Source: Eledone cirrhosa
Taxonomy: Eukaryota
Direction: 5' to 3'
Length of the DNA: 64,000 bases
NCBI GenBank assembly: GCA_964016885.1
Contig: OZ024743.1
Span: 257,610,001-257,674,000 of the forward strand
Shown: positions 378 to 60,540 of the stretch, one piece after another
How positions within the stretch are numbered: position 1 is the first letter of the stretch
Layout of the letters: every line of letters begins with the position of its first letter
Notes under the pieces: generated by a model
Seen by the model: only the letters and a program-made list of their open reading frames with translations
Told to the model about the DNA's origin: nothing
Database searches by the model: none
Translations under genes and position numbers: made by a program

Positions 378-1157
<780 letters not shown>

Positions 1158-1229
1158 TAGCGAAGCAAACGGTTATTAAACAATTTTCTAAATAAATTTA
1201 AAAATGTTTAAATAATCACCTGTTCAGAC

Positions 1230-1310
1230 GCTGTTACCGACGGTTTCATCATTCCGAAAGATTGAAAATCCAACGAATTTCCAATGGAAAGAAATGAATC
1301 TTCAGACAGC
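1230..1310 (-). ncRNA. Type I hammerhead ribozyme with long stem II
   Basis: Minus strand: GCTGT-CTGAAGA-tTCATT...AATGAt-GAAA-CCG t CGG-TA-ACAGC. Confidence 0.8.
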
Positions 1311-1661
1311 CCTATTTCCACGCCATAAGGTATCTAGCCTAATAGCAAGTAAATATTATGCTCCCTGCCCAACGCATGCGGTCAAGCCGTTAAAATGACA
1401 CACACGCAAATCAGGTCGCTGATAAAAGCTGGATATTATAAACATGTCGAATTGCCACTAAAATTAGCAGCATTATTCAACGTTTTGTTCTGCTGCTATT
1501 TATAGTGGTAGTAGACTGACCTCTCTGCCTCTGCTTATTTCTTTACACACGGCACTGGACAGAATTGCTTCCACATCATTCATTCTCATCTCGGGAACAA
1601 TTTTGAATAGCGCCAGTTCGTAATTTGAACTCGGGAATTTTATATTCTCCAAGTGAAAAGA

Positions 1662-1747
1662 GCCTTCTGACGAGAGTTTATCTTTTCAATGGAAGGCCGC
1701 ATTTATGTCCATTTATTTTTTAGACTCGAAACCGATTCGGTAAAGGT
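1662..1747 (+). ncRNA. Type I hammerhead ribozyme with long stem II
   Basis: GCCTT-CTGACGA-GAGT...ACTC-GAAA-CCG att CGG-TA-AAGGT; all core nucleotides canonical. Confidence 0.9.
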
Positions 1748-1832
1748 AACCATAGTGAGTACAGCGAATCATTTAAAATTTATTTTGAAACTTTTTCTTA
1801 TTTGCTAAACCTGATTATATATATATATATGT

Positions 1833-7885: not shown

Positions 7886-10800
7886 ACATTCAAATAATAT
7901 AATATACACTCATTTTCCCTTGGATATCTTCAAACAACCAAATAACCAAAAACTATTAACATCCTCAAACAACCAAACTCACATCCATAAGAGTGAATAT
8001 ATATATATACACAATTCTTTAATTTCTTCAAATAACCAAAGTCTCACTCACGTATCCAATATCAAATATCTTAAAATGCACACAAGGGTAAAAAAAAAAA
8101 AAAATGACTACTGACCAGCAAGCCCACAACGGACGAAATTGGTCTGAAAATGAAATTGACCTCTTAATAAACACATGGTTTTCTCCGTCCCAAACGATAA
8201 ACATTAACGCGTCATGTCTGAATGAAATTACTGAAAAAACAGCTCAAGCATTGACCATGAGGTCTACTAAGCAGATACACAACAAACTAAATCATGTAGA
8301 CGTCTCTTTCAAACTAATTCAAAACCATTTTGAAAAACTTCGACACATTTACTCCAATGGACAAACACAACAACAACAGCAACAACAACAACAACAACAA
8401 CAGCCACAACAACAACATCCAGAAAACCAGGAGCAACCACTACTGAATAACTGAATGACAGTATCCCTCAGCCACTCACCCAGCCATCATTATCGCCATC
8501 ACCATCACCACCGTCACCATCTTCTGCCACACCAACTGCTAATAATGGACCACTGCTCTCTCTCCCACCACAGTTGTCATCATCATCATCACCACCAATG
8601 CTTTCTTCCCCCACATCACCACCACAGTCATGCCATAGTCAAAAGAACTTAAAAAAAAAATCTATGGAGCTGTATGCACCTCCCACTACACATACTAGAA
8701 ACCCCAAAATATGCCGCTACTCACTACGTCAGAGGCTATGCACATGTAGCGACTGTATATTTACCCATTTACCGGGTACTAGGTGCACTAACACTGCCAG
8801 CCAACACCAAAGCATGCTGCCCACACGTATAAGACGCAGTTCCAAAATCTGCCAACACACATTCCCAACGTGAGAGGCTATGTCTGCTGACTGACTGTCC
8901 CTTCACTCATCTTCTTGAACACAACGCACGAACAGAAAAGGGGCTCCATGCCAACCCACAAACTGCGGTAATGCTGCTCCAGTCTCCTCACAAAGACATG
9001 ATTACAACAACAAAAACAACAAAAGTAATGCTGCTCCAGTCTTTTCAAAAAGACACGATCACAACAACAACAAAAATAACACTGCTCCAGTCTTTTCACA
9101 AAGACACAATTACAACAAATACAACAACAACAACAACAAAAAAGGGATCTGCAACCCTATCCAATGTTGTAACCACAAATCCAATCAAGAACTGCTCCCT
9201 CAACCCCCAAAATATCTTTCTTTTTTAGCCATGAACCTGGCATAAGAGATAGAAAAAAACATTTTAGCCATCACCCAACACCATCCTTGCTGTCAATAAC
9301 ATACAATCACAAAACAAGCCCCCTGCAACAGTCAAAACCAGCTACCGCACTACCCTCCACATTCTTACTCAATACACAAGGTATCAGCCCATCCATCAAT
9401 GCACAGAAATGGAAGATCCAATTCATTGAGGATTGGGTTGGTAACCATCCATTTCACATCCCCTTCTTCATTCTTACTGAGACCCACCTTGACAACTCCC
9501 ACTTGGAGGCCGAAGTAAGAGAGAGAAATTTCACAACCATCCGTGCAGATCGTGTTGGCAGAAGGAAAGGTGGAACTGCCATTTTCCTGCATGATTCCTT
9601 TACGGCAGATGGCAACACAACATTCTCTAATGGATACTGTGAATCAGTCACTGTGCACAATAAAGCCAATGACCTGACATTAGTTGGGCTCTATAGGCCA
9701 CCACAAACACTCATAATCTGCTTCAAAGAATGCCTCAACGGTATTAAACGCTATATTAAACAGTGCCATTCTAGCAACATACTTTTGATGGGAGACTTTA
9801 ATCTACACTGTGTCGATTGGTCTACATGTAGTTTGAAACCAGGCTCCACAGCCTCAACCACTGACAAAGAGGCTGTCGAGTCACTTCTTGACTTCATGAA
9901 TGAGTTTTTCTTGTCCCAATTTGTCCTGGCATCAGAAGAACATTCTGGATCTAGTGTTTAGTAACCACACTAATATTACAGTGGAAAAAACCCTTCTCTC
10001 AGACCATGACATGGTTTTTTGTTACCTGAGATTCCACCAGCCGAAATCTAATCCCAGAGTCCTCTCTCCAGCCCACCCATTTCATAACATGGATCTCTAC
10101 AATGCCAACTGGGATGCAATTATGAACGAACTGTCACATGACGACTGCTCTTTTACACCAGCACACACTTCCACCAACATCAAAACATCTTGGCAGATCT
10201 TTGTAGACACTGTCACAAATATATGTACAAAACACACCCCACCAAAACCTGTGAACAAAACCAAGTGCAGTATCCTCCAAAACAGAAAAACAATTATCAG
10301 AAAAATAAAAAGAACAAACAAATAAATTAACACACTAAAATACTGCCAACAGCAACACACACATTCAATGGCTATCACCCTGCTTGAGTCAAAAAAATAT
10401 AACCTCCAGCAATGCATGATGACCATCATCAATAACCAGAGAATAGCTGAAAAGAGGTGGGCCATTGAGAAAATCAAACTCAACCCGAAAGTGTTCTTTT
10501 CATTTGCTAAAAAACACAAGGTCACCGTTTCCACTGTTGGCCCCCTAGTTGATGAAAATGGCACACTCCAGGACAATGCCAAAACCATGGTCGAGATAAT
10601 GCAGAAACAATACTGCTCTGTTTTCAGCAATCCTGATCTGGGCCGTATCAGTGATGTTAATCCCCAACACACTATATCAGACATAACGTTTGGCGCACTT
10701 GATGTCTTAGCAGCAATAAACAAAATTAAACACAATTCAGCAGTAGGCACTGACAGGTTCCCTGCTTGTGTCCTGAAGGTGTGCCGACACCAACTTGCAT

Positions 10801-12352: not shown

Positions 12353-12970
12353 CACTGAAGATGCTCTTCAGAAGCTCCTTGGCTAGCGGTATACTACCCA
12401 GGGAGCTGAAAGACGGCACAATATGCCCTATCCATAAAGGAGGTAGCAGAGCGGAGGTCAAAAACTATAGGCCAGTCTTCCTGACATCGCATATCAGTAA
12501 GGTTATGGAGCGAGTTGTCAGAAAGAAACAGAACACTTTCCTCAGGGAAAATGACCGCCTGACTAGAACGCAGCATGGCTTCCACCCAGGAAGAAACTGC
12601 CTTACACAGCTGCTACATCACTACGACTGGATACTGAAACAACTGCTAGACAGCTCACATGTGGACCTGATATATCTTGACTTTGCGAAGGCCTTTGACA
12701 AGGTCGACCACGGAATGATATGTCACAAACTACACAGACTCGGCATAATTGGAAAAGTAGGTGAGTGGCTGCATGACTTCTTAAAGGACAGAAGCCAGAC
12801 AGTCGCAGCAAACAGGGCCCTCTCAAAGGAAACATCAATAACAAGTGGGGTGCCCCAAGGGACAGTCCTGGGGCCACTACTGTTTTGGGGGCCTCTCTGA
12901 GACATGCCCTCTGTAGTACATACAACAACATCCCTCACTAGCTATGCTGATGACACTAAGGTAGCACAAA
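12349..12970 (+). pseudogene. Second CR1-group RT fragment
   Basis: PIHKGG..NYRPV..QHGF..YLDFAKAFDKVDH..GVPQGTVLGP, then YADDTK after a frameshift. Confidence 0.88.
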
Positions 12971-12971
12971 A

Positions 12972-13429
12972 CTGCCCCAACAAATGAATGATGAAACAAT
13001 TTTGTCTAGTACCGTGTGCAAAGACTGAAAGCAAGGTGGACAGCTCAATCTCTCGCTACTAAAAATAGCAGCCATTCAAATGACCAAAGGTTTCTCTACC
13101 ATTGGGGAGTGAACGGTTGCTATTTTTAGTAGCGAGAGATTGACCTGTCCACCTTGCTTTCAGTCTTTGCACATGGTACTAGACAAAATTGTTTCATCAT
13201 TCATTTGTTGGGGCAGATTTGTATGGCACAAGTTTGTATTTTGAACTCGGGAATCTTATATTCTCCGAGAGAGAAAAGCCTTCTGACGAGGATCTATTTC
13301 TCAATGGAAACTCGCTTGGATTATCTATTTGTTTTGGGATCTGAAACCGCGGTAAAGGCACATATAGTAAGTACAGTGAATTTTTTTAAATTTATTTAAA
13401 CATTTTTTCTTTATTTGCTTTTCCTTGAT

Positions 13430-13432
<3 letters not shown>
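12972..13432 (+). mobile_element. Non-coding element: ~105 bp-arm fold-back followed by a hammerhead, ending in (TA)n
   Basis: 12972-13078 is the reverse complement of 13109-13217; 13240-13432 is homologous to 1624-1815. Confidence 0.8.
13278..13359 (+). ncRNA. Type I hammerhead ribozyme
   Basis: GCCTT-CTGACGA-GGATC...GATCT-GAAA-CCGCGG-TA-AAGGC; palindromic stem III. Confidence 0.88.
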
Positions 13433-13489: not shown

Positions 13490-14420
13490 CTCTTATCCAT
13501 GCTTACATATGGATGTAAAAACGATGACGCGAGAGTCCAGGTTTAAAGTGTTCTACCCCTGTCTTGTATTATGACGGCATTCCTACAAGTCCATCAGGAT
13601 TTAAAGGCTGTTTACTTTACTTGAAAGACTATATATCTTTCAAGTTTACTCACGAGCTGCCTCTCATCAGGCTATATATTTGTAAAAAAAAATAAGGTAT
13701 CCCATCGAAGAGATGAGAAAAAATACATGAAATATGGGTGGGAAGTGTGCTAGAGGGTTGTGAATTATATTTCTAATAAAAAAAAAACATGATTTTCAAA
13801 TAATTTTGAAAATAAGTGTTTTATAAAATTCAAATCTCGAGTTGAAATCTTTCCATAGAAATAGGGGTAGTAATAGTGCTTGTTGCTGTTAAGTCTCAGA
13901 TTAGCTCTGATGAAGCAAACTCATGCTTTCATAATGACCCTTTCTCCCTACTGTTTAAATATCAAGGATTTACATTGTGTAATGTGCCTCTTCATTTTAA
14001 AGAGAGCAGGGGTTGTTTTGAAGGTAATTTGGATTCTACTTTTAGCAAGTATAGCAACCATGTAATTAGTAACTCAGAAATAATACTAATGCACTGTCCT
14101 GTAGTCTTTCTTATCCTTCCAGCATCATCACAACTTTACATTCTGCCTCGACATGTATGCCAATTCTAGTTTCTGTCATTGCTTTAAATATAGTAGAGTC
14201 GCCCTGAATAAATTGATATATAACGATTCCAATACTGTAAAATATCTTGATAATGGCTAAGATAAATATTTCCACCAACCACTGTAATCCTACTTTCACT
14301 TTCAATTTTAAAACTATTCCATTTCAGACAGACTGCTATTTTCAGCTTTGTCGTATTTCTCTTTTTAATTATTTTTCTTTATTTTTCAAAGCAGAACTTA
14401 ATATTGCCAGATCTAAATTC
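13490..14420 (-). pseudogene. Highly decayed PLE GIY-YIG region and 3' end
   Basis: IVIYQF..GDST....TRIGIHV resembles the PLE endonuclease start; decayed CTGATGA-GAG..CTC core near 13650-13670 (-). Confidence 0.4.
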
Positions 14421-26816: not shown

Positions 26817-26824
<8 letters not shown>

Positions 26825-27850
26825 TAAATAACAGATTAAAGTTTAAGCAAAGAATCGCTGCTTTCACCCTTAACGGGATCTTCTGAAACTAACAAAGTCA
26901 ATCTGTAAACGCAGAACTGGATATTTCAAAAAACGTTGCAACCGGAGGAAGACAGGAAGACGATACTTTGGTTCGTGGTAACGTTCGCTGGCAAAGAACG
27001 GGAAAAAACGAATAATACGTCATTAATAGGAGCGGTGAAAAACAATTACACGCAAAGACAGAACCACATTTATGGTATAAAAGAGGTCGTAGACTAATGT
27101 TCTCTTAGGTGGTGCATAGAGACGTTCTCTGGCAATGAACGAAAAAACGAAGATAATAAGTCATATGTGGAGCGTGGGGAACAATAGCACGCAAAGACAA
27201 AACCACGTAAATGCTATAGCAGAAGTCGTAGACTAAAATTCTAACTAGGAGACCAAATGAATCTCCGCTACAGAGTTAAGAACATTTGTATTTGTTCTTA
27301 ACTAACTCTGTAGCGGAGATTCCTTTGGTCTCCTAGTTAGAATTTTAGTCTACGACTTCTGCTATAGCATTTACGTGGTTTTGTCTTTGCGTACTATTGT
27401 TCTCCACGCTCCACATATGACTTATTATCTTCGTTTTTTCGTTCATTGCCAGAGAACGTCTCTATGCACCACCTAAGAGACCATTAGTCTACGACCTCTT
27501 TTATACCATAAACGTGGTTCTGTCTTTGCGTGTAATTGTTTTTCACCGCTCCTATTAATGACGCATTATTCGTTTTTTCCCGTTCTTTGCCAGCGAACGT
27601 TACCACGAACCAAAGTATCGTCTTCCTGTCTTCCTCTGGTTGCAACGTTTTTTAAAATATCCAGTTCTGCGTTTACAGATTGACTTTGTTAGTTTCAGAA
27701 GATCCCGTTAAGGGTGAAAGCAGCGATTCTTTGCTTAAACTTTAATCTGTTATTTAATAAATATTTGCTCTACGGTTCTTATATATTTGATATATATTTA
27801 TCCTTATCGAGCCCTCTTTTGATTTTAGTCTTCAATTTTATTATTATTAC

Positions 27851-28725: not shown

Positions 28726-28815
28726 GCACTCATATATATATGAATTATTGAGCCCTCTGCCGCTCATTTCGAATTTTGTTTATCGTGAACTCGTGCGCCG
28801 ATTTTTCGATACTCG

Positions 28816-28891
<76 letters not shown>

Positions 28892-28972
28892 GATAAGCAG
28901 AACAAGCAAAATTCAAACAATTTTTTAAAAATAAATTAAAAAATATAATTTAAATATTTACCTACTCCAGTT

Positions 28973-29053
28973 GCTCTTACCGATCGGTTTCCCTTTACAA
29001 AACATTGGAAATCCATGGGATTTCCAATGTCAAAGTAAAGTTCATCAGAAAGC
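28973..29053 (-). ncRNA. Type I hammerhead ribozyme, copy 1
   Basis: Minus strand: GCTTT-CTGATGA-aCTTTAC..[ACATTGGAAATCC cat GGATTTCCAATGT]..GTAAAGg-GAAA-CCGATCGG-TA-AGAGC. Confidence 0.85.
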
Positions 29054-29459
29054 ATTTTCCTTTCCTAGGGCTAAAAGTCCCACGAACGGCAAAATATATT
29101 GCCATCTGCTAGCTAGCACAAGATCGAGTGAGGCCGAAAATTTGAACTGTACATGAACCAGTCCGTAGCAAAAGCGGAAGTAAACATAGAAGTGTTGTCT
29201 ACTACACTACTAAAAATAGCAGCCAAATAGAACAACAGATTTGTTCTCTACATAACGGAGAATATTAAAAGAAGTTAATATGCCCACGGGTACTAAGTAC
29301 CCCTGGAAATATATAGTTTGTCTATGATACAGGTTTGTTCAATGGTATTAATTTGACATACTAGAACTATAATATTAAGATAAGCAGAACAAGCAAAATT
29401 CAAACAATTTTTTAAAAATAAATTAAAAAATATAATTTAAATATTTACCTACTCCAGTT

Positions 29460-29540
29460 GCTCTTACCGATCGGTTTCCCTTTACAAAACATTGGAAATC
29501 CATGGGATTTCCAATGGAAAAGTAAAGTTCATCAGAAAGC
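29460..29540 (-). ncRNA. Type I hammerhead ribozyme, copy 2
   Basis: Same fold 487 nt away; differences confined to distal stem II. Confidence 0.85.
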
Positions 29541-29681
29541 ATTTTCCTTTCCTAGGGCTAAAAGTCCTAGGAACGGCAAAATATATTGCCATCTGCTAGC
29601 TAGCACAAGTTCGAGTGAGGCCGAAAATTTGACCTATACATGAACCAGTCCGTAGCAAAAGCGGAAGTAAACATAGACGCG

Positions 29682-33095
<3,414 letters not shown>

Positions 33096-33717: not shown

Positions 33718-33748
<31 letters not shown>

Positions 33749-34433
33749 ATTAAGTTAAAAATGTACATCCACATATGTATACTGAAATACTAGTATGCAT
33801 ATGAATACACACACGTATACATATGTAGATGTACCGAGTTTTTCACTGGTCACTTTACTGTGAGTGTCCAGCTATTCTGTATGTAAACACACAGACAAAC
33901 CGGTTTTTAGAGTCATACTGGTTTTTGAGGAAACACCTTTCCTCTATTCTCCAGAAAGCCAGACAAGGAATATTGAACTAGTTTCGATGTTGTTACATCT
34001 CATCAGCAATATTTACCTATCTTCCGGCCTTTCTAGAGAATCGTAAAAGCACATATCGTTATATGCTTTTTCTATGAAAATTAGTAGTGGGCAGACTAAT
34101 TTGCATAGAGCGTGAGTACGTACCGGTTCAACGGAGACGATAAAAACAAATAACGAAACGAAATTAAATTTCGTTTCGTTTGTAACTCACTTTTGTATGA
34201 CTGACGCTTAAACAATTAAGTTAAAAATGTACATCCACATATGTATACTGAAATACTAGTATGCATATGAATACACACACGTATACATATGTAGATGTAC
34301 CGAGTTTTTCACTGGTCACTTTACTGTGAGTGTCCAGCTATTCTGTATGTAAACACACAGACAAACCGGTTTTTAGAGTCATACTGGTTTTTGAGGAAAC
34401 ACCTTTCCTCTATTCTCCAGAAAGCCAGACAAG

Positions 34434-34439
<6 letters not shown>
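33749..34439 (-). mobile_element. Tandem repeat of a 466 nt unit (~1.5 copies) with a minimal HHR; retrozyme-like
   Basis: 33749-33973 repeats essentially identically at 34215-34439; (TA)n on both sides. Confidence 0.85.
33969..34013 (-). ncRNA. Minimal type I hammerhead ribozyme, fully canonical
   Basis: Minus strand: AATATTG-CTGATGA-GATGT aaca ACATC-GAAA-CTAG-TT-CAATATT; 7 bp stem I, palindromic ACTAGT stem III. Confidence 0.92.
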
Positions 34440-38994: not shown

Positions 38995-39203
38995 ATAATA
39001 ATAAAATTGAAGACTAAATCCAAAGAGGGCTCGATAAGGATAAATATATATCAAATATATAAGAACCGTAGAGCAAATATTTATTAAAATAACAGATTAA
39101 AGTTTAAGCAAAGAATCGCTGGTTTCACCCTTAACGGGATCTTCTGCAGAAGATCCCGTTAAGGGTGAAAACAGCGATTCTTTGCTTAAACTTTAATCTG
39201 CTA

Positions 39204-39210
<7 letters not shown>
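38991..39210. repeat. Short palindrome of the 26817-27851 family ends
   Basis: Inversion centre TTCTG|CAGAA at 39146/39147; left arm carries the full tail. Confidence 0.85.
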
Positions 39211-39259
<49 letters not shown>

Positions 39260-47822: not shown

Positions 47823-47902
<80 letters not shown>

Positions 47903-48115
47903 TTAATTAATTAATTATACTATTTATGGTTATGTAAATACAAAAACCTTATGCAGTTATATGTATTTTTTATACAAACCCTAAATAGTGGTAGGCAGTA
48001 ATGTATTACTACCTTATTACCAGTAAGTTAAGTAGCTCAATGTAAAAACATCAGATGATTTACAGAGCAGTTATATGAAATATAAGAATCAAAGAACTGT
48101 TCAAAACATTATTGT

Positions 48116-48160
48116 GCTTACAGCTGTTTCCTCCAAACCGAGGTTTGGATTCTTCGGAGC
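48116..48160 (-). ncRNA. Hammerhead variant with CCGAAGA core, left arm
   Basis: GCT-CCGAAGA-aTCCAAACC tc GGTTTGGAg-GAAA-CAGCTG-TA-AGC; palindromic ACAGCTGT stem III. Confidence 0.72.
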
Positions 48161-48966
48161 AATTTATTAATGAATGGACAGTTATATGACCTCCTTTTCA
48201 GCCAAGAGACATACCGATACATATGCAAATATTGTGGGGCAACATTCATTACAGAATTTAGAGTGGCAGTACACACTTCGAGATTACATTCATATTAAAA
48301 GGTACAATCAAAAATCAAAAATACAGGTTAAAATACAACATGAAGATAAGCGGTTATATAGTGCAAATGCTATATGTGTGGCAAGCACGTGCGTCTTGTT
48401 TATATAGTGTGGCAGAGAGATACGTGTAGTAGAGGCACTTAGGTAGGTAAACAAGAGTGTTAGGTTGGTTGATCTGGTGGCAAATTCTTTATATGATTGA
48501 TATAGTCTGTGTGTGGAGAAATGATATAAGCATTAAAAATAGTGCAAGCATTAAAAGTATTGGAGATGCACAGCGAAGGGATGACAAGTACTTCATGTAC
48601 TTCGACATTTTCATGGTCAGGGGAGTGTATTTTTCGATTATATGCCAGTCACATAATCGACGACAATTCGATATTGAGCGTTTGACAATCCAGTTAGAGA
48701 ATCGTAGTCCGATGTTCTTTAGTTCAATACAGGAGGCTGTTACGTTTCGAGAAACGACATTGAATACCACCCGGAAGTGTGTGTGTGGCTAAGGGGAGTT
48801 AATACATGAGGGGAGCTGACTCCGGGGTTTCTATACCTAGCTATTGAAATGTGTCTCAAAATAGACCCTAATTTCTATGGTTATGCGCAACTTCCAAAAA
48901 ATGTTTAAAGCATAAAGTGTTTTAACTATAGAGTAGTTTAATTAAGTTGTGCTGAAGGTGTTCGTA

Positions 48967-49346
48967 TTAGTATTGTGAGTTTTTGCTAAATATGTTTGCG
49001 TCATAGGACAGACTAGAGATTCTATTGGACACCCCCTTAGAGATAGAGTTTAATATTGATCTAGGGTGATTAGACTTGGTATCTACGTAAATGAGTTTTT
49101 CGTTAGGCTTATGGAAAGGTGTATATATTTTTGAGTCTAGGTATAGTGTGGCGTCTAGGAAGTTAACATTTTTAGTGTTTTTGTCCATGGTGATACTAAG
49201 GTTAAAGTTTTTGAATGTCTTATGCAATTGTTTTCTAGTTCTTTCTATATTAAATTTTTTATATTCTATAAGTAAAAGTGCATCATCGCGGTACAAACCA
49301 CCGTTGAGGTAAGGGAGGTCCTTATGGATTTCATTGAGAAGGTATA
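48967..49346 (-). pseudogene. PLE reverse transcriptase fragment (YRDD)
   Basis: GGLYRDDAL...VNFLDATL...PFHKPNEKLIYVDTKSNHP...RISSLS, typical of the Naiad RT palm/thumb. Confidence 0.88.
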
Positions 49347-49349
49347 AGA

Positions 49350-49877
49350 AATAACACCGGGGTTGACAACCCGAATGTCCAAAATCCTATAGCTACCACC
49401 CAGACTTCTGCACTGCATTATAACCAGCAGACTAACAGACAGGATAATTGTAACTGTAGAGCTAATAGAACCTGCCCTTTAGATAAACAATGCCTAACCA
49501 AGGATATCATATACTCATGCACCGTCACAACTAGCAACTCTTCAGAAACCTATGTAGGCTCCACTTCTAACTGCTTCAAAATAAGATATAATTCGCACAT
49601 CCACTCGTTCAAAAAGCACAGCCTAGCCAACTCCACCTCACTTTCTAGCTACATACACTATCTAAAAACTAAAAATAAACCATACACACTCAAATGGGAA
49701 GTGATAGGCAGCGCGACCTCGTACAAACCACCTAATAAATTTTGTAACCTCTGTATACTAGAGACCCACAATATTATCTTCTCCAACCGTAACCTACTTA
49801 ACAAAAAATCTGAGGTGTCTGCAACTTGCCAGCACCGCTTCAGACATCCCTTCCAAAACTTTAAGCCCAATATATAG
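49350..49877 (+). CDS. PLE GIY-YIG endonuclease, open frame without ATG (absent from the ORF track)
   Basis: CNCRANRTCPLDKQCLTKDIIYSCTV...YVGSTSNCFKIRYNSH..SF...STSLSSYIH.LK...KWEVI...CNLCILE...LLNKKSEV..TCQH*. Confidence 0.9.
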   Translation, partial: NNTGVDNPNVQNPIATTQTSALHYNQQTNRQDNCNCRANRTCPLDKQCLTKDIIYSCTVTTSNSSETYVGSTSNCFKIRYNSHIHSFKKHSLANSTSLSSYIHYLKTKNKPYTLKWEVIGSATSYKPPNKFCNLCILETHNIIFSNRNLLNKKSEVSATCQHRFRHPFQNFKPNI

Positions 49878-51317
49878 CAATGTCGGACTTGAACCAAACA
49901 CCACATCTAGCATCAAACACCAGGGGCACACCTTATACCACATACCCAAACACTAACTGATCTAATATAACACAAACAACGACATCCCTCTGGAACCCTT
50001 CGCAGGGAGAATACCCATTTATACCTCTACGTCAGGTTTGACAACATCCACCCACTTGAACTGCACTACACCGCTCTATAGGTAATTTGAACATGATTTG
50101 ATTGGTTTGGTAGTGTTGTGCGGAGGAAGTGCCTTCCTTAGACAGATGTAAAACGATTTAATCTAGTAACGCTGTTGAGCAGTATGACCGGTACGCTGAG
50201 CGCAGAGACTGAATGTATTGCAACTGGCGTGCGGGTTGTACATATATGGATGATTTGGCGGTCAGAGAGGGGTCGTGAAGACTGAGGATTGACCTCTGGC
50301 CGGACCTGGTGATGATTATCTTTCGACATCCAATGTAGCAAGCGATGACCCAGAACGTACCAGAGATCATTGTGTCTTGAAGTGATTCTGCAATCACCGC
50401 GCCTGGTCCTATGAGTAGACTACAACCACAGAGATCATTAATTTAGAATCCTCGCTCATCGTCTATAATATTCATTTGTGGCACCCTACGATGGGAGTTA
50501 ATTCACCATAATAATACGAATACCTTCAGCACAACTTAATTAAACTACTCTATAGTTAAAACACTTTATGCTTTAAAAATTCTTTGGAAGTTGCGCATAA
50601 CCATAGAAATTAGGGTCTATTTTGAGACACATTTCAATAGCTAGGTATAGAAACCCCGGAGTTAGCTCCCCTCATGCATTAACTCCCCTTAGCCACACAC
50701 ACACTTCTGGGTGGTATTCAATGTCGTTTCTCGAAACGTAACAGCCTCCTGTATTGAACTAAAGAACATCGGACTACGATTCTCTAACTGGATTGTCAAA
50801 CGCTCAATATCGAATTGTCGTCGATTATGTGAGGGGCATATAATCGAAAAATACACTCCCCTGACCATGAAAATGTCGAAGTACATGAAGTACTTGTCAT
50901 CCCTTCGCTGTGCATCTCCAATACTTTTAATGCTTGCACTATTTTTAATGCTTATATCATTTCTCCACACACAGACTATATCAATCTTATAAGGAATTTT
51001 CCACCAGATCAACCAACCTAACACTCTTGTTTACCTACCTAAGTGCCTCTACTACACGTATCTCTCTGCCACACTATATAAACAAGACGCACGTGCTTGC
51101 CACACATATAACATTTGCACTATATAACCGCTTATCTTCATGTATTTTAACCTGTATTTTTGATTTTTGATTGTACCTTTTAATATGAATGTAATCTCGA
51201 AGTGTGTACTGCCACTCTAAATTCTGTAATGAATGTTGCCCCACAATATTTGCATATGTATCGGTATGTCTCTTGGCTGAAAAGGAGGTCATATAACTGT
51301 CCGTTCATTAATAAATT

Positions 51318-51362
51318 GCTCCGAAGAATCCAAACCTCGGTTTGGAGGAAACAACTGTAAGC
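51318..51362 (+). ncRNA. Hammerhead variant with CCGAAGA core, right arm
   Basis: Same fold; stem III reads CAACTG. Confidence 0.68.
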
Positions 51363-53879
51363 ACAATAATGTTTTGAACAGTTCTTTGATTCTTATATTT
51401 CATATATATATATATATATATAAATAATTGAGAGAGAGAGAAATAGATGGATAGATATTTATAAGAGAATGAAAAGTGCTCAAACACAGAAAAATAACTG
51501 CAATTGAGTGTGTGTGTATGTATATATATACATATATATATATACAAGCAATAGGCTCCAACAATTTCTATCTACTGAATTCCACTCATACAGCACTGGT
51601 CAATCCAAGATTGTAATCAAAACATTTGACAAACGTGCTGTACAATGGAATTGAATCCAGAAACACATGGTTGTGAAATTAACTCCTTTACCATACAACT
51701 TTGCCAGCACCTTTAAAGAAATTATCTGGATTTAATCTAGTGCTTCTCTATATTAGAAGCAATTCATGATAAAAATAGTTTTGAGACTTTAGTGAGGATA
51801 GTTACTCTATCTTTGTCGACTGAACATTTTAGTTTTATGTTCGAGAGAAGAGATTATGATTAGATAAATACCGACAACAACAAATGGAATTGTTTGGCTT
51901 TCTTAATCAGATGTTTTATATTGTACTCAATATCATAAGACTGTAGATCACTATATTGTTTCATTCAACACATATATATTGTCTATGTAGGTGTGTGTCT
52001 TTCTCTATATATCATCATCATTTTCCTTCTATTTCCCATACTTGCATGGTATGCGTGTGTATCTATATGTGTTTATATATATATGTGTGTGTGTGGGTAG
52101 GGGTGTCAGGTTTAATTGTGGGAAACCACCGTAAGTAAGGTACTCAATACATTAGTAGAGTGTATAAAAAGAAAATAATATAGAAAGGCGTCTACAGGAC
52201 TAGAACTGTTTCATTTGAAGGAAATCATCAGATATATATACATCATATGTATATATATGAGCAAATTCACTATTTTATTAAAATTGTGCTTTGTACTGAT
52301 ATATTATATGTTCCTATAGTATATATGTAGAGTAGATAAGGTACCAGGTTTAAAATACCCAAGACACACTGTATCAGACAGCACCTTTACAGTTGAGTTA
52401 TAGATCCTTTACCACTTTTTTTTATATATTCTCATCATCGTTTAATGGCTGTATTTCTAGAAATAGAAACTGCAGATGATCCCTGATTTGTGGAGATAAT
52501 TAAATACAAGTATCACCAATGGAAGATCCTACTATCTATTGTATGGATTATAATTTATCTATTTAGTACCAGTTATATCTGAGAATGTGAGAAGTAAATC
52601 ATGAACTGTCATCCCTAATATTAGATCTAAATTTGACACAGCTATCAGTTGTTTAATTTAACAGTCTTTTAATCTCTGGGGGCGAATGGGGGAAAGGATG
52701 GTAGTAGCAGCTGTCCATTACCAGAACATAAATTGAAAGAAGGATTTCTTTGGAAGCTCTTAAAGAGTCTGTCATTCAACCAACTCCATCTTTCTAACGT
52801 AGTTTATTTTAATTTTATCTTTTTAAAAGTTTAATTTGTCTTATACTTGGAAAGTGTCTGGACAACCTTATTTAGTATGTTAGAAGCAGATGTTAATCTT
52901 TGCCTCATAAAAAATATATATTCTATATATATATATGTATAGATGGATAGATGTTTTCTCTCTTAGTTTTGAGTTTAATTTTGACTGGCCACCTTCCTGG
53001 TGGCAAGGTTGTAAAGGAAATTATCATCATCTCTTGTGTAAGCATGCATCTTTTAAATTGTAAAGAATATTTTACAAATTTTTAAGGTTCCAGATATCGT
53101 GGACATTTATAGCTTATGAATTAAGGAGTGATGTACTTTTTCCCCAAATCCTAGTTCAGTTATAGTTCAGGCAGGTTGGTATATAACCTGTAGTATGCAT
53201 ATATATATGCATGTATATACATATAACTGGCTATTGATTCTGCATGATTGGTGTGCATTCGGTCCATGATTCTGGTATAGACCACCCTATTTTTTAAAGC
53301 ATGTATCTAGGATTATATTATTCATTATATCTTTAAAAGAACAGATTGTTATTTGGCTGCTATTTTGAAGAGGTTCAGTGACTGTATAAAAAATCCAACC
53401 TCATATGTATATAAAGATGAACAGACAACATTATATAAAGTCAAACAGACGGACCATTATAGTGAAGGAAGATAAGACAAAGAATGAAAAGGGGTGAGAA
53501 AAAGAAGGAAAAAGGACAAAAATTAAAACTATAAAAAATTGTGAACAAACCTCATCCACACAAAAAAAAGTGGAGAGGAGAAATTAAAGGCTGCAAGACA
53601 AAAGCATCACAAACAAGTGTCACCACAAGTGCAACACAATCAACACCCACGCACCACAATAACAACAAAAGCAAACACAACACAGAAAAAAAACATTAAA
53701 ACTACATGGCCATAAACACAAAAAATACAGAACTAATGGAATACATAAAAACACACACAACCATTACACAAGCAGATTTTCCAACATCCACAATCCCCAT
53801 ACCTACACACATACAAATCATTCAGACAACACAAGGCACATATAATCATCTAAAAACTAAATTCCCAAAGGAAATCAGT

Positions 53880-59030: not shown

Positions 59031-59110
59031 ATTGATATATCTGTTTCAGAAGATCCCACAGAAGGGTGAATGCAGAAATTGTTTGCTTATACATTTAATC
59101 TGTGGTTTTA
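59029..59110 (+). ncRNA. Diverged copy of the CAGAAGA hammerhead-like fold
   Basis: GATTGA..TGTTT-CAGAAGA-tCCC acagaa GGGt-GAAT-GCA loop TGC-TT-ATACA-tTTAATC. Confidence 0.5.
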
Positions 59111-59219
59111 TATATATATATATATATATAGTAATATATATATATATATATATATAGTAATATATATATATATATAGTAATATATATATATATATATATA
59201 TAGTAATATATATATATAT

Positions 59220-60088: not shown

Positions 60089-60090
<2 letters not shown>
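59635..60090. repeat. Diverged fold-back element with a decayed HHR core; relative at 61621-61862
   Basis: 59770-59891 is a diverged reverse complement of 59963-60089; CTGATGA-tGTCGCCAA...TTGGCCACt-GAAA at 59965-60022. Confidence 0.6.
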
Positions 60091-60119
<29 letters not shown>

Positions 60120-60540
60120 TAAAATAACAGATTAAAGTTTAAGCAAACAATCGGTGCTTTGATATATATTTATCCTTATCGAGCCCTCTTTGGATTTTAG
60201 TCTTCAAATTTATTATTATTACTATATCATCATCATCATCATCATCACCGTTTTACGTCTGTTCTTCCACGCTAGCATGGGTTAGACGGGTTGTCCTGTT
60301 GTGGGCAGTGTCCAGTCAGCTGACCTTCTCTTGCTCATATGGGAACTGATTCTGGCTTGATTTCTACAGCTGGATGCCCTTCCTAACACCAACCTTATTT
60401 ACAGTGAGTGCTGGGTGCTTTTTTGCCGTGGCACCTCCACGACCACTTTGCAGTGGAATGATATGGACCCCAGTCCCTATCATCTCATTTCTACAGCTGA
60501 GTAAACTGGAGCAATGTGAAATAAAGTGTCTTGCTCAAGG

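Follow-up and report, generated by a model that had tools for sequence, protein, structure and literature searches.

A hammerhead-bearing partial tandem repeat in Eledone cirrhosa: a probable non-autonomous derivative of a PLE

Two hammerhead ribozyme (HHR) motifs lie one behind the other on the minus strand of a 64-kb stretch of the Eledone cirrhosa genome (hereafter the window), raising the question of whether they mark an element whose RNA is cut twice and circularised, or whether their arrangement arose in another way. We consider it likely that the insertion is a non-autonomous derivative of a Penelope-like element (PLE), hence an animal non-LTR retrozyme, put into (TA)n by the RT/GIY-YIG protein of an autonomous PLE; its structural features would place it among the PLE-type non-LTR retrozymes. 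The features discussed below are collected in Table 1.

A preliminary description had reported two minus-strand HHRs 487 nt apart in some 1.6 copies of a non-coding unit. The arrangement was borne out by minus-strand direct repeats of 305 nt (29677-29373 and 29190-28886), which are offset by 487 nt and are 97.7% alike, with seven differences. The unit also proved to be non-coding, as no frame of at least 80 aa runs over the element except for (TA)n run-through frames touching its last bases; GC content is about 34%. The 3' end lies 92 nt beyond a cut site and the 5' end about 213 nt upstream of the first cut, and both flanks consist of (TA)n, inside which a target-site duplication is unreadable. 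An inverted 5' pLTR is absent here and present at both loci of the relatives described below. The seven differences between the copies are not significantly clustered upstream of the cut (P = 0.08, or P = 0.24 if counted as four clusters). With 1.63 units the repeat is borderline under the two-unit rule of 10.64898/2026.07.22.740005, and the 487-nt tandem is absent from the output of Tandem Repeats Finder.

Table 1. Coordinates of the insertion, its parts and other elements in the window
Feature	Position	Strand	Remarks
Whole insertion	28886..29680	-	partial tandem of 1.63 laps (487 nt each, non-coding), arranged pLTR-body-pLTR
Upstream 5'-truncated copy (pseudo-LTR equivalent)	29373..29677	-	may reach 29679-29682
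Downstream repeat copy	28886..29190	-	ends in (TA)n
Single-copy lap segment	29191..29372	-	182 nt
(TA)n at 3' end of insertion	28818..28888	.	
(TA)n at 5' end of insertion	29682..29712	.	
Type I hammerhead 1	29459..29541	-	C3 29535, cut between 29465 and 29464; A·G at 10.1/11.1
Type I hammerhead 2	28972..29054	-	C3 29048, cut between 28978 and 28977
Predicted (hypothetical) cut-to-cut monomer	28978..29464	-	487 nt
Terminal long hairpin, cut site to (TA)n	28895..28976	-	candidate RT-start structure; fold z -3.6
Conserved (MEF2-like) box	29210..29227	-	candidate pLTR promoter or inversion-junction element; A/T core 240 nt upstream of cut 2
Predicted intron across repeat boundary	29361..29448	-	82 or 88 nt; donor AG/GTAAAT at 29448, acceptor AG 29367 or 29361
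Segment ending in (TA)n in other copies, probable long 'tail'	29262..29372	-	110 nt; from loose ends
Relative E1L	1153..1480	-	box, HHR cut 1235, hairpin, (TA)n; head-to-head with E1R
Relative E1R	1482..1817	+	HHR cut 1742
Relative E2	13111..13432	+	HHR cut 13354; inverted 5' duplicate 12966-13077, 95.5% alike
PLE remnant	47899-51406	RT piece -, GIY-YIG-like piece +	between inverted arms
Second partial tandem, unrelated	33748-34439	-	466-nt lap with identical 226-nt repeats; (TA)n on both sides; single small HHR (cut position 33976)

Both HHRs have the full set of core letters (CUGAUGA, GAAA and UA) and stems I-III that define type I (CUGANGA, GAAA and UH). Stem I has 6 bp including one U·G, stem II has 6 bp, and stem III (ACCGAUCGGU) is a perfect palindrome; this palindrome and the predicted cut at CGGUA^AGAGC (after 29465 and 28978) are found in both copies as first described. 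Stem II is lengthened by an internal loop and a hairpin. The perfect 13-bp hairpin claimed for it holds for the downstream copy, which has 14 bp (13 Watson-Crick pairs and one G·U), but not for the upstream copy, which has 12 bp. Similarly, the ribozymes had been called intact, and every core letter is indeed there, but positions 10.1 and 11.1 are A·G, hence not paired, in both copies. According to PMC3088659, 10.1-11.1 is the most conserved HHR pair after 15.1-16.1, although natural U·U mismatches exist. The hammerhead models of Rfam gave no match at gathering score in the whole window or at E ≤ 10 in 28800-30100, probably on account of the long stem II. A relaxed structural scan of the window detected eight HHR motifs, compared with none in 10 block shuffles: the two under study, three in distant relatives, one in each arm of a PLE remnant, and a last one in another partial tandem.

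Together with its three distant relatives (E1L, E1R and E2) the element forms a group of four units with pairwise identities of 49-74%, all of which have the same order of parts: conserved box, HHR with long stem II, terminal hairpin, (TA)n. The box-HHR pattern has four matches in the window and none in 100 shuffles. All four units have a fixed 3' end in (TA)n, at 92, 75, 77 and 82 nt from the cut, and a hairpin resembling the terminal hairpin of our element folds at z between -1.1 and -2.4 in the three relatives. At these levels of identity the pairs of stems I and II covary across the units; pair 2 of stem I, for example, reads U·G, U-A, U-A and G-C, and pair 3 reads U-A, C-G, C-G and U-A. 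A search of the window by nhmmer with a four-unit profile yielded no further full copies. Lone diverged boxes, without an HHR, are found at 14028, 45809 and 53352 (six box matches in total versus 0.14 expected). The head-to-head pair at 1153-1817 is only 49% alike within one pair of (TA)n tracts and is either a chimeric insertion of two subfamilies or one unit inserted against the other; at 12966-13432, both inverted arms start a few bases before the conserved box. Candidate relatives picked up by pattern scan outside the window were rejected as chance matches: among 44 viral stretches none had stems I and II of at least 4 bp and none gave a blastn match, and 13 metagenome stretches had no CGGUA half by eye, with a best blastn E of 0.004 over 23 nt.

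The box lies 231-245 nt upstream of the cut in all four units. As part of the predicted monomer it had been likened to a MEF2 site, and its sequence, CTATTTTTAG, does match the MEF2 consensus. This match would favour a host-exapted MEF2 enhancer or regulatory RNA, a reading that we hold to be extremely improbable given that the box keeps a fixed place in four diverged mobile units, departs from the consensus in E1L and has transposon remnants as neighbours. The box, conserved in four of four units, is more likely a pLTR promoter-type or junction element than an enhancer for host muscle. PMC3846280 describes TATA-like promoters in pLTRs. The case for a TATA box here is weak, as TAWWWWWA occurs in 571 of 11014 background windows (5%); in the arms of the PLE remnant the pattern places such boxes at 216 nt and at 284-287 nt, and at roughly 241 nt a TATATAA was noted by eye. 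The upstream copy of our element starts 25-28 nt downstream of the box equivalent and so has no box. Since the only candidate promoter therefore lies between the two HHRs, a self-driven transcript would carry just one of them.

We aligned the lap (28886-29372), at an identity of at least 80%, against four of seven public sequencing runs, none of which is recorded as RNA; runs X1 and X3 represent one sample. The unit was matched by 833 contigs in X1, 686 in X3 and 24 in X4, and by 1079 reads in X5. Of the X1 contigs, 132 are at least 99% alike to the unit and 191 are under 90%. We infer that many copies of the family exist, with the caveat that summed depth is not a copy number. In X1, X3 and X4 some contigs run over the joint from 29372 to 28886/7, reaching 36-41 letters beyond it on the shorter side, and position 29260 is likewise bridged by contigs; diverged contigs cross both lap junctions in three runs (two samples). 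These crossings indicate that the 487-nt lap is continuous in other copies. One further (TA)n end, at 28887, occurs in X4, in keeping with the fixed 3' end.

Such contigs bear on whether the tandem could be an assembly artefact, that is, a false duplication beside long microsatellites with consensus errors in one copy. There is long (TA)n close by, and at the four difference sites among the variants listed (29030, 29031, 29083 and 29146) 95-100% of the depth in X1 and X3 has the letter of the upstream copy, which other copies also have at the equivalent of 29191. As the other copies match the upstream letter at four of seven sites, the downstream letters are private mutations or errors. Those at 29146, 29191 and 29317 are in no X1 or X3 contig, so that the locus itself is without independent confirmation from these runs. 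The argument first made, that differences between the copies speak against a collapsed assembly, is accordingly weakened, while the tandem is better supported by the continuity of the lap elsewhere. Given the joint in three runs, the contigs that span 29260, and a layout that is the expected product of a PLE, we consider an artefact very unlikely. Both copies also share minority letters of the family (e.g. at 28976, 29007 and 29041), which fits a single template lineage.

A second possibility is that a solo PLE terminal repeat was duplicated locally at the DNA level, by unequal crossing-over or slippage, and was never mobile as a 487-nt unit. Only 1.63 units are present, and 10.64898/2026.07.22.740005 proposes local amplification from pLTRs. 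Moreover, loose ends at 29248-29289 run into (TA)n in other copies, both before and after 29260-29262, and a dip in contig depth covers 29260-29276; the lap may accordingly be composite. We nevertheless judge this scenario unlikely, because both ends of the insertion abut (TA)n with the 3' end at the usual place of the family, because diverged contigs cross the lap junctions in three runs, and because an unrelated partial tandem of like style lies 4.5 kb away. Two further families appeared in X5, one matching the unit in the region of stems III and I only (28957-28991, with as many as 243 reads) and the other in the box region only (29210-29262, as many as 315 reads).

Insertion by a PLE protein would account for the layout as follows. 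A parent tandem may have given rise to an RNA longer than one lap, or the lap may have been circularised. By analogy with the biochemistry of PAc, the PLE protein would then nick A/T-rich DNA and begin cDNA synthesis within the RNA, at a point 92 nt downstream of an HHR cut site and just beyond the terminal hairpin. The inserted sequence shows that the cDNA passed both HHR cut sites and ended about 213 nt upstream of the first; the product has 1.63 laps, so the two HHRs are the terminal redundancy of a partial tandem. A cDNA that runs across both sites rules out one linear cut-to-cut monomer as the template, which must have been uncut at both sites, circular, or bridged by template jumps. The HHR itself is probably slow, and dimer- or protein-assisted, and its likely job would be to free element RNA from longer transcripts, which the 5' end of the second partial tandem suggests that it sometimes does.

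This reading agrees with what has been published on PLEs. PMC8557442 describes PLE copies in partial tandem, 5' copies in inverted orientation, tails, insertion into (TA)n, and members that are non-autonomous. The pLTRs of EN+ PLEs share with our group the partial tandem, the (TA)n target, the inverted pLTRs (seen in the relatives) and an HHR some 75-92 nt from the 3' end, and their optional tail and TATA-like box have candidate counterparts in the family. For PAc, PMC11167929 places the cut at +26 and the cDNA start at +111 to +118 of the ORF, which by subtraction are 85-92 nt apart, compared with the 75-92 nt from cut to end in our four units; the HHR of PAc was dependent on protein, with uncut RNA serving as the principal template. 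PLE HHRs, as characterised in PMC4209133, have a palindromic helix III, occur in opposite-strand pairs 100-700 bp apart and show low activity, and the head-to-head relatives at 1153-1817 and 12966-13432 resemble these min-HHRs. Our HHRs differ from them in having neither G10.1-C11.1 nor an unpaired base after A9 and in a far longer stem II (7-8 bp in PLEs), and the element has no ORF.

The window also contains a protein-coding remnant of a PLE, whose 910-nt inverted arms (48072-48981 and 50500-51406) are 97.8% identical. It was compared with P0002, which by its motifs we take to be a PLE protein; identity is 36% over 121 aa for the RT and 43% over 132 aa for the endonuclease. Pfam gave GIY-YIG for the remnant at E = 0.0054, below the cut-off, and no PLE-type match for P0002. 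The HHR of each arm has U4C as well as A·G at 10.1/11.1, so the A·G recurs in an unrelated element, and the left arm has a palindromic stem III. The arms end in (TA)n, one 43-45 nt after the cut and the other, which alone has a tail of about 175 nt, at 220 nt. At the DNA level the remnant is not similar to the unit (best E = 0.15) and hence is not the partner of our element, and no autonomous PLE with a matching pLTR was found within the window.

In the second partial tandem, the 5' end falls 3 nt after the cut position, which fits a template 5' end made by the hammerhead in this one case. The junction lies in ATAT microhomology, and with seven ATAT sites in the lap the chance of an end at the cut would be about 1 in 7, again for a single case, if microhomology sets the end. 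The 466-nt lap folds as a circle at z = -10.6 (40 shuffles). This tandem looks young and offers a better test case for HHR-made 5' ends than the element studied here.

Other elements in the window include a palindrome at 26817-27764, with arms of about 460-490 nt beside (TA)n. It contains a 139-nt repeat, and some 70 nt in from either end lies a CAGAAGA...GAAA that resembles a hammerhead core. Related pieces lie near 39077-39242, 59043-59147 and 60089-60160, and at 39077-39242 a short inverted pair turns exactly at the hammerhead-like core; the palindrome is probably another PLE-type family. The frames at 8092-8870 (+) resemble, in their motif, a Myb/SANT-like protein of Harbinger type.

The remaining alternative, which is compatible with insertion by a PLE protein, is an active circRNA retrozyme: multi-lap copies would be transcribed, cut twice and ligated by RtcB into 487-nt circles that serve as RT template. 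The predicted 487-nt geometry was confirmed as regards the spacing from cut to cut, where two complete cores lie one lap apart, and the palindromic stem III permits a nested double hammerhead. Among the variants listed (40 of 158), U occupies position 10.1 in ~70% of the X1 depth (1164 of 1660 units) and in 31 of 41 X5 reads, and A occupies position 1.2 in ~75% of the X1 depth (4005 of 5302 units). Most copies of the family would thus have U·G at 10.1/11.1 and a Watson-Crick stem I (U-A), which favours activity elsewhere, as does the continuity of the lap in other copies. The lap also folds well as a circle (-130.2 kcal/mol, z = -6.3, none of 100 shuffles as low); however, the antisense strand folds at z = -4.4, so the score reflects local hairpins. 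PMC7229834 provides precedents in mussel and axolotl.

Against this, the active folds are not the predicted ground states. In a model that leaves out tertiary contacts and proteins, the active fold costs about 3.2 kcal/mol locally in the monomer, because CUGAU pairs with stem III, 4.8-6.9 kcal/mol in the 795-nt transcript, 5.5 kcal/mol in the circle and 9.2 kcal/mol as a double hammerhead. A conserved anti-ribozyme switch, in which the 3' strand of stem I pairs with the end of the element, was considered and rejected, as own and swapped sequences gave no clear preference. Most PLE-type HHRs cleaved poorly according to PMC4209133, only one of nine Xenopus HHR dimers was reported to cleave in 10.64898/2026.07.22.740005, and for PAc the template is uncut RNA (PMC11167929). 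With the conserved box missing from the upstream copy, release of a 487-nt RNA at this locus would need read-through from upstream. A nearly whole RTE-type LINE (29713-32957, +, also delimited as 29846-32957), with endonuclease and RT in two frames, lies head to head with the element across (TA)n and is a possible source of such transcription. Because the cut junction CGGUA^AGAGC has the same sequence as the genomic tandem, junction reads cannot show circularity. A 487-nt monomer or circle is plausible for the family; we put an active circRNA retrozyme somewhat short of even for the family, and as unlikely for this locus. The expectation that 487 nt exceeds typical retrozymes is correct with respect to the circles of 170-400 nt in PMC7229834 but not with respect to the unit lengths of 51-972 bp in 10.64898/2026.07.22.740005.

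An intron is predicted across the repeat boundary. Its donor-like site lies 17 nt after cut 1, and donor-like sites are found 4-17 nt after the cut in all four related units (7-8 of 9 matches to the donor consensus MAG/GTRAGT). The background is 529 of 11369 windows, and the four units, being related, amount to about three lineages; two unrelated HHR families (the PLE remnant and the second partial tandem) have no such donor by eye. The presumed cDNA start would fall inside this predicted intron. Chlamys-3_cRei similarly has an intron across the pLTR boundary, whereas in the D. virilis PLE the intron ends before helix I and our predicted donor lies after the HHR. The candidate tail of about 110 nt compares with 30-40 nt for PLE tails; ends in our family lie 92 and 203 nt after the cut, and in the arms of the PLE remnant at 43-45 and 220 nt.

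Long arrays of type I HHRs with a weak palindromic stem III, with transcripts, are known from the Sm-alpha repeats of Schistosoma. Newt satellite 2 (PMC7229834, PMC6155905) likewise has a type I HHR with a weak palindromic stem III and predicted dimer action, as here, but differs in its long arrays, canonical helix sizes and demonstrated transcripts. Animal non-LTR retrozymes, as described in PMC7229834 (Cervera and de la Pena 2020) and 10.64898/2026.07.22.740005, resemble our element as non-coding, low-GC (<50%), head-to-tail units with one type I HHR per unit; the axolotl retrozyme has a palindromic stem III, HHR_Amex2 has a mismatch at the base of stem II (U·U, compared with A·G here), and PLEs occur in the same genome, as in our window. 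Unlike retrozymes, the element has only 1.63 units, a fixed 3' end in (TA)n, and a long, interrupted stem II in which no canonical loop 1-loop 2 signature is apparent. Animal retrozymes have been argued to be non-autonomous PLE sequences (10.64898/2026.07.22.740005; Li, Clavereau and Pollet 2026). Among cephalopods, PMC8967140 reports Penelope expansions in coleoids, the accessible portions making no mention of ribozymes; in those of the giant squid paper (PMC6962438), 235 Hammerhead_1 matches are counted without analysis. The Naiads of Octopus have (TA)n targets. The literature covered by our search, outside of which fell subscription papers and Repbase, contained no account of retrozymes or PLE hammerheads from octopus and no description of the HHR families studied here.

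The link between hammerhead tandem repeats and Penelope is already published, and the locus itself is ordinary. What makes it valuable is its company: the 64 kb hold eight HHRs that belong to three or more unrelated families, together with a protein-coding PLE remnant, and all ends are readable. Both the role of the PLE hammerhead and the reason for which PLEs retain their intron are presented as open questions in PMC8557442 and PMC11167929. A reading in which abundant circular RNAs of 466-487 nt act as intermediates seems doubtful to us at present; if true, however, it would explain the retention of the PLE intron and would give the PLE hammerhead a defined role.
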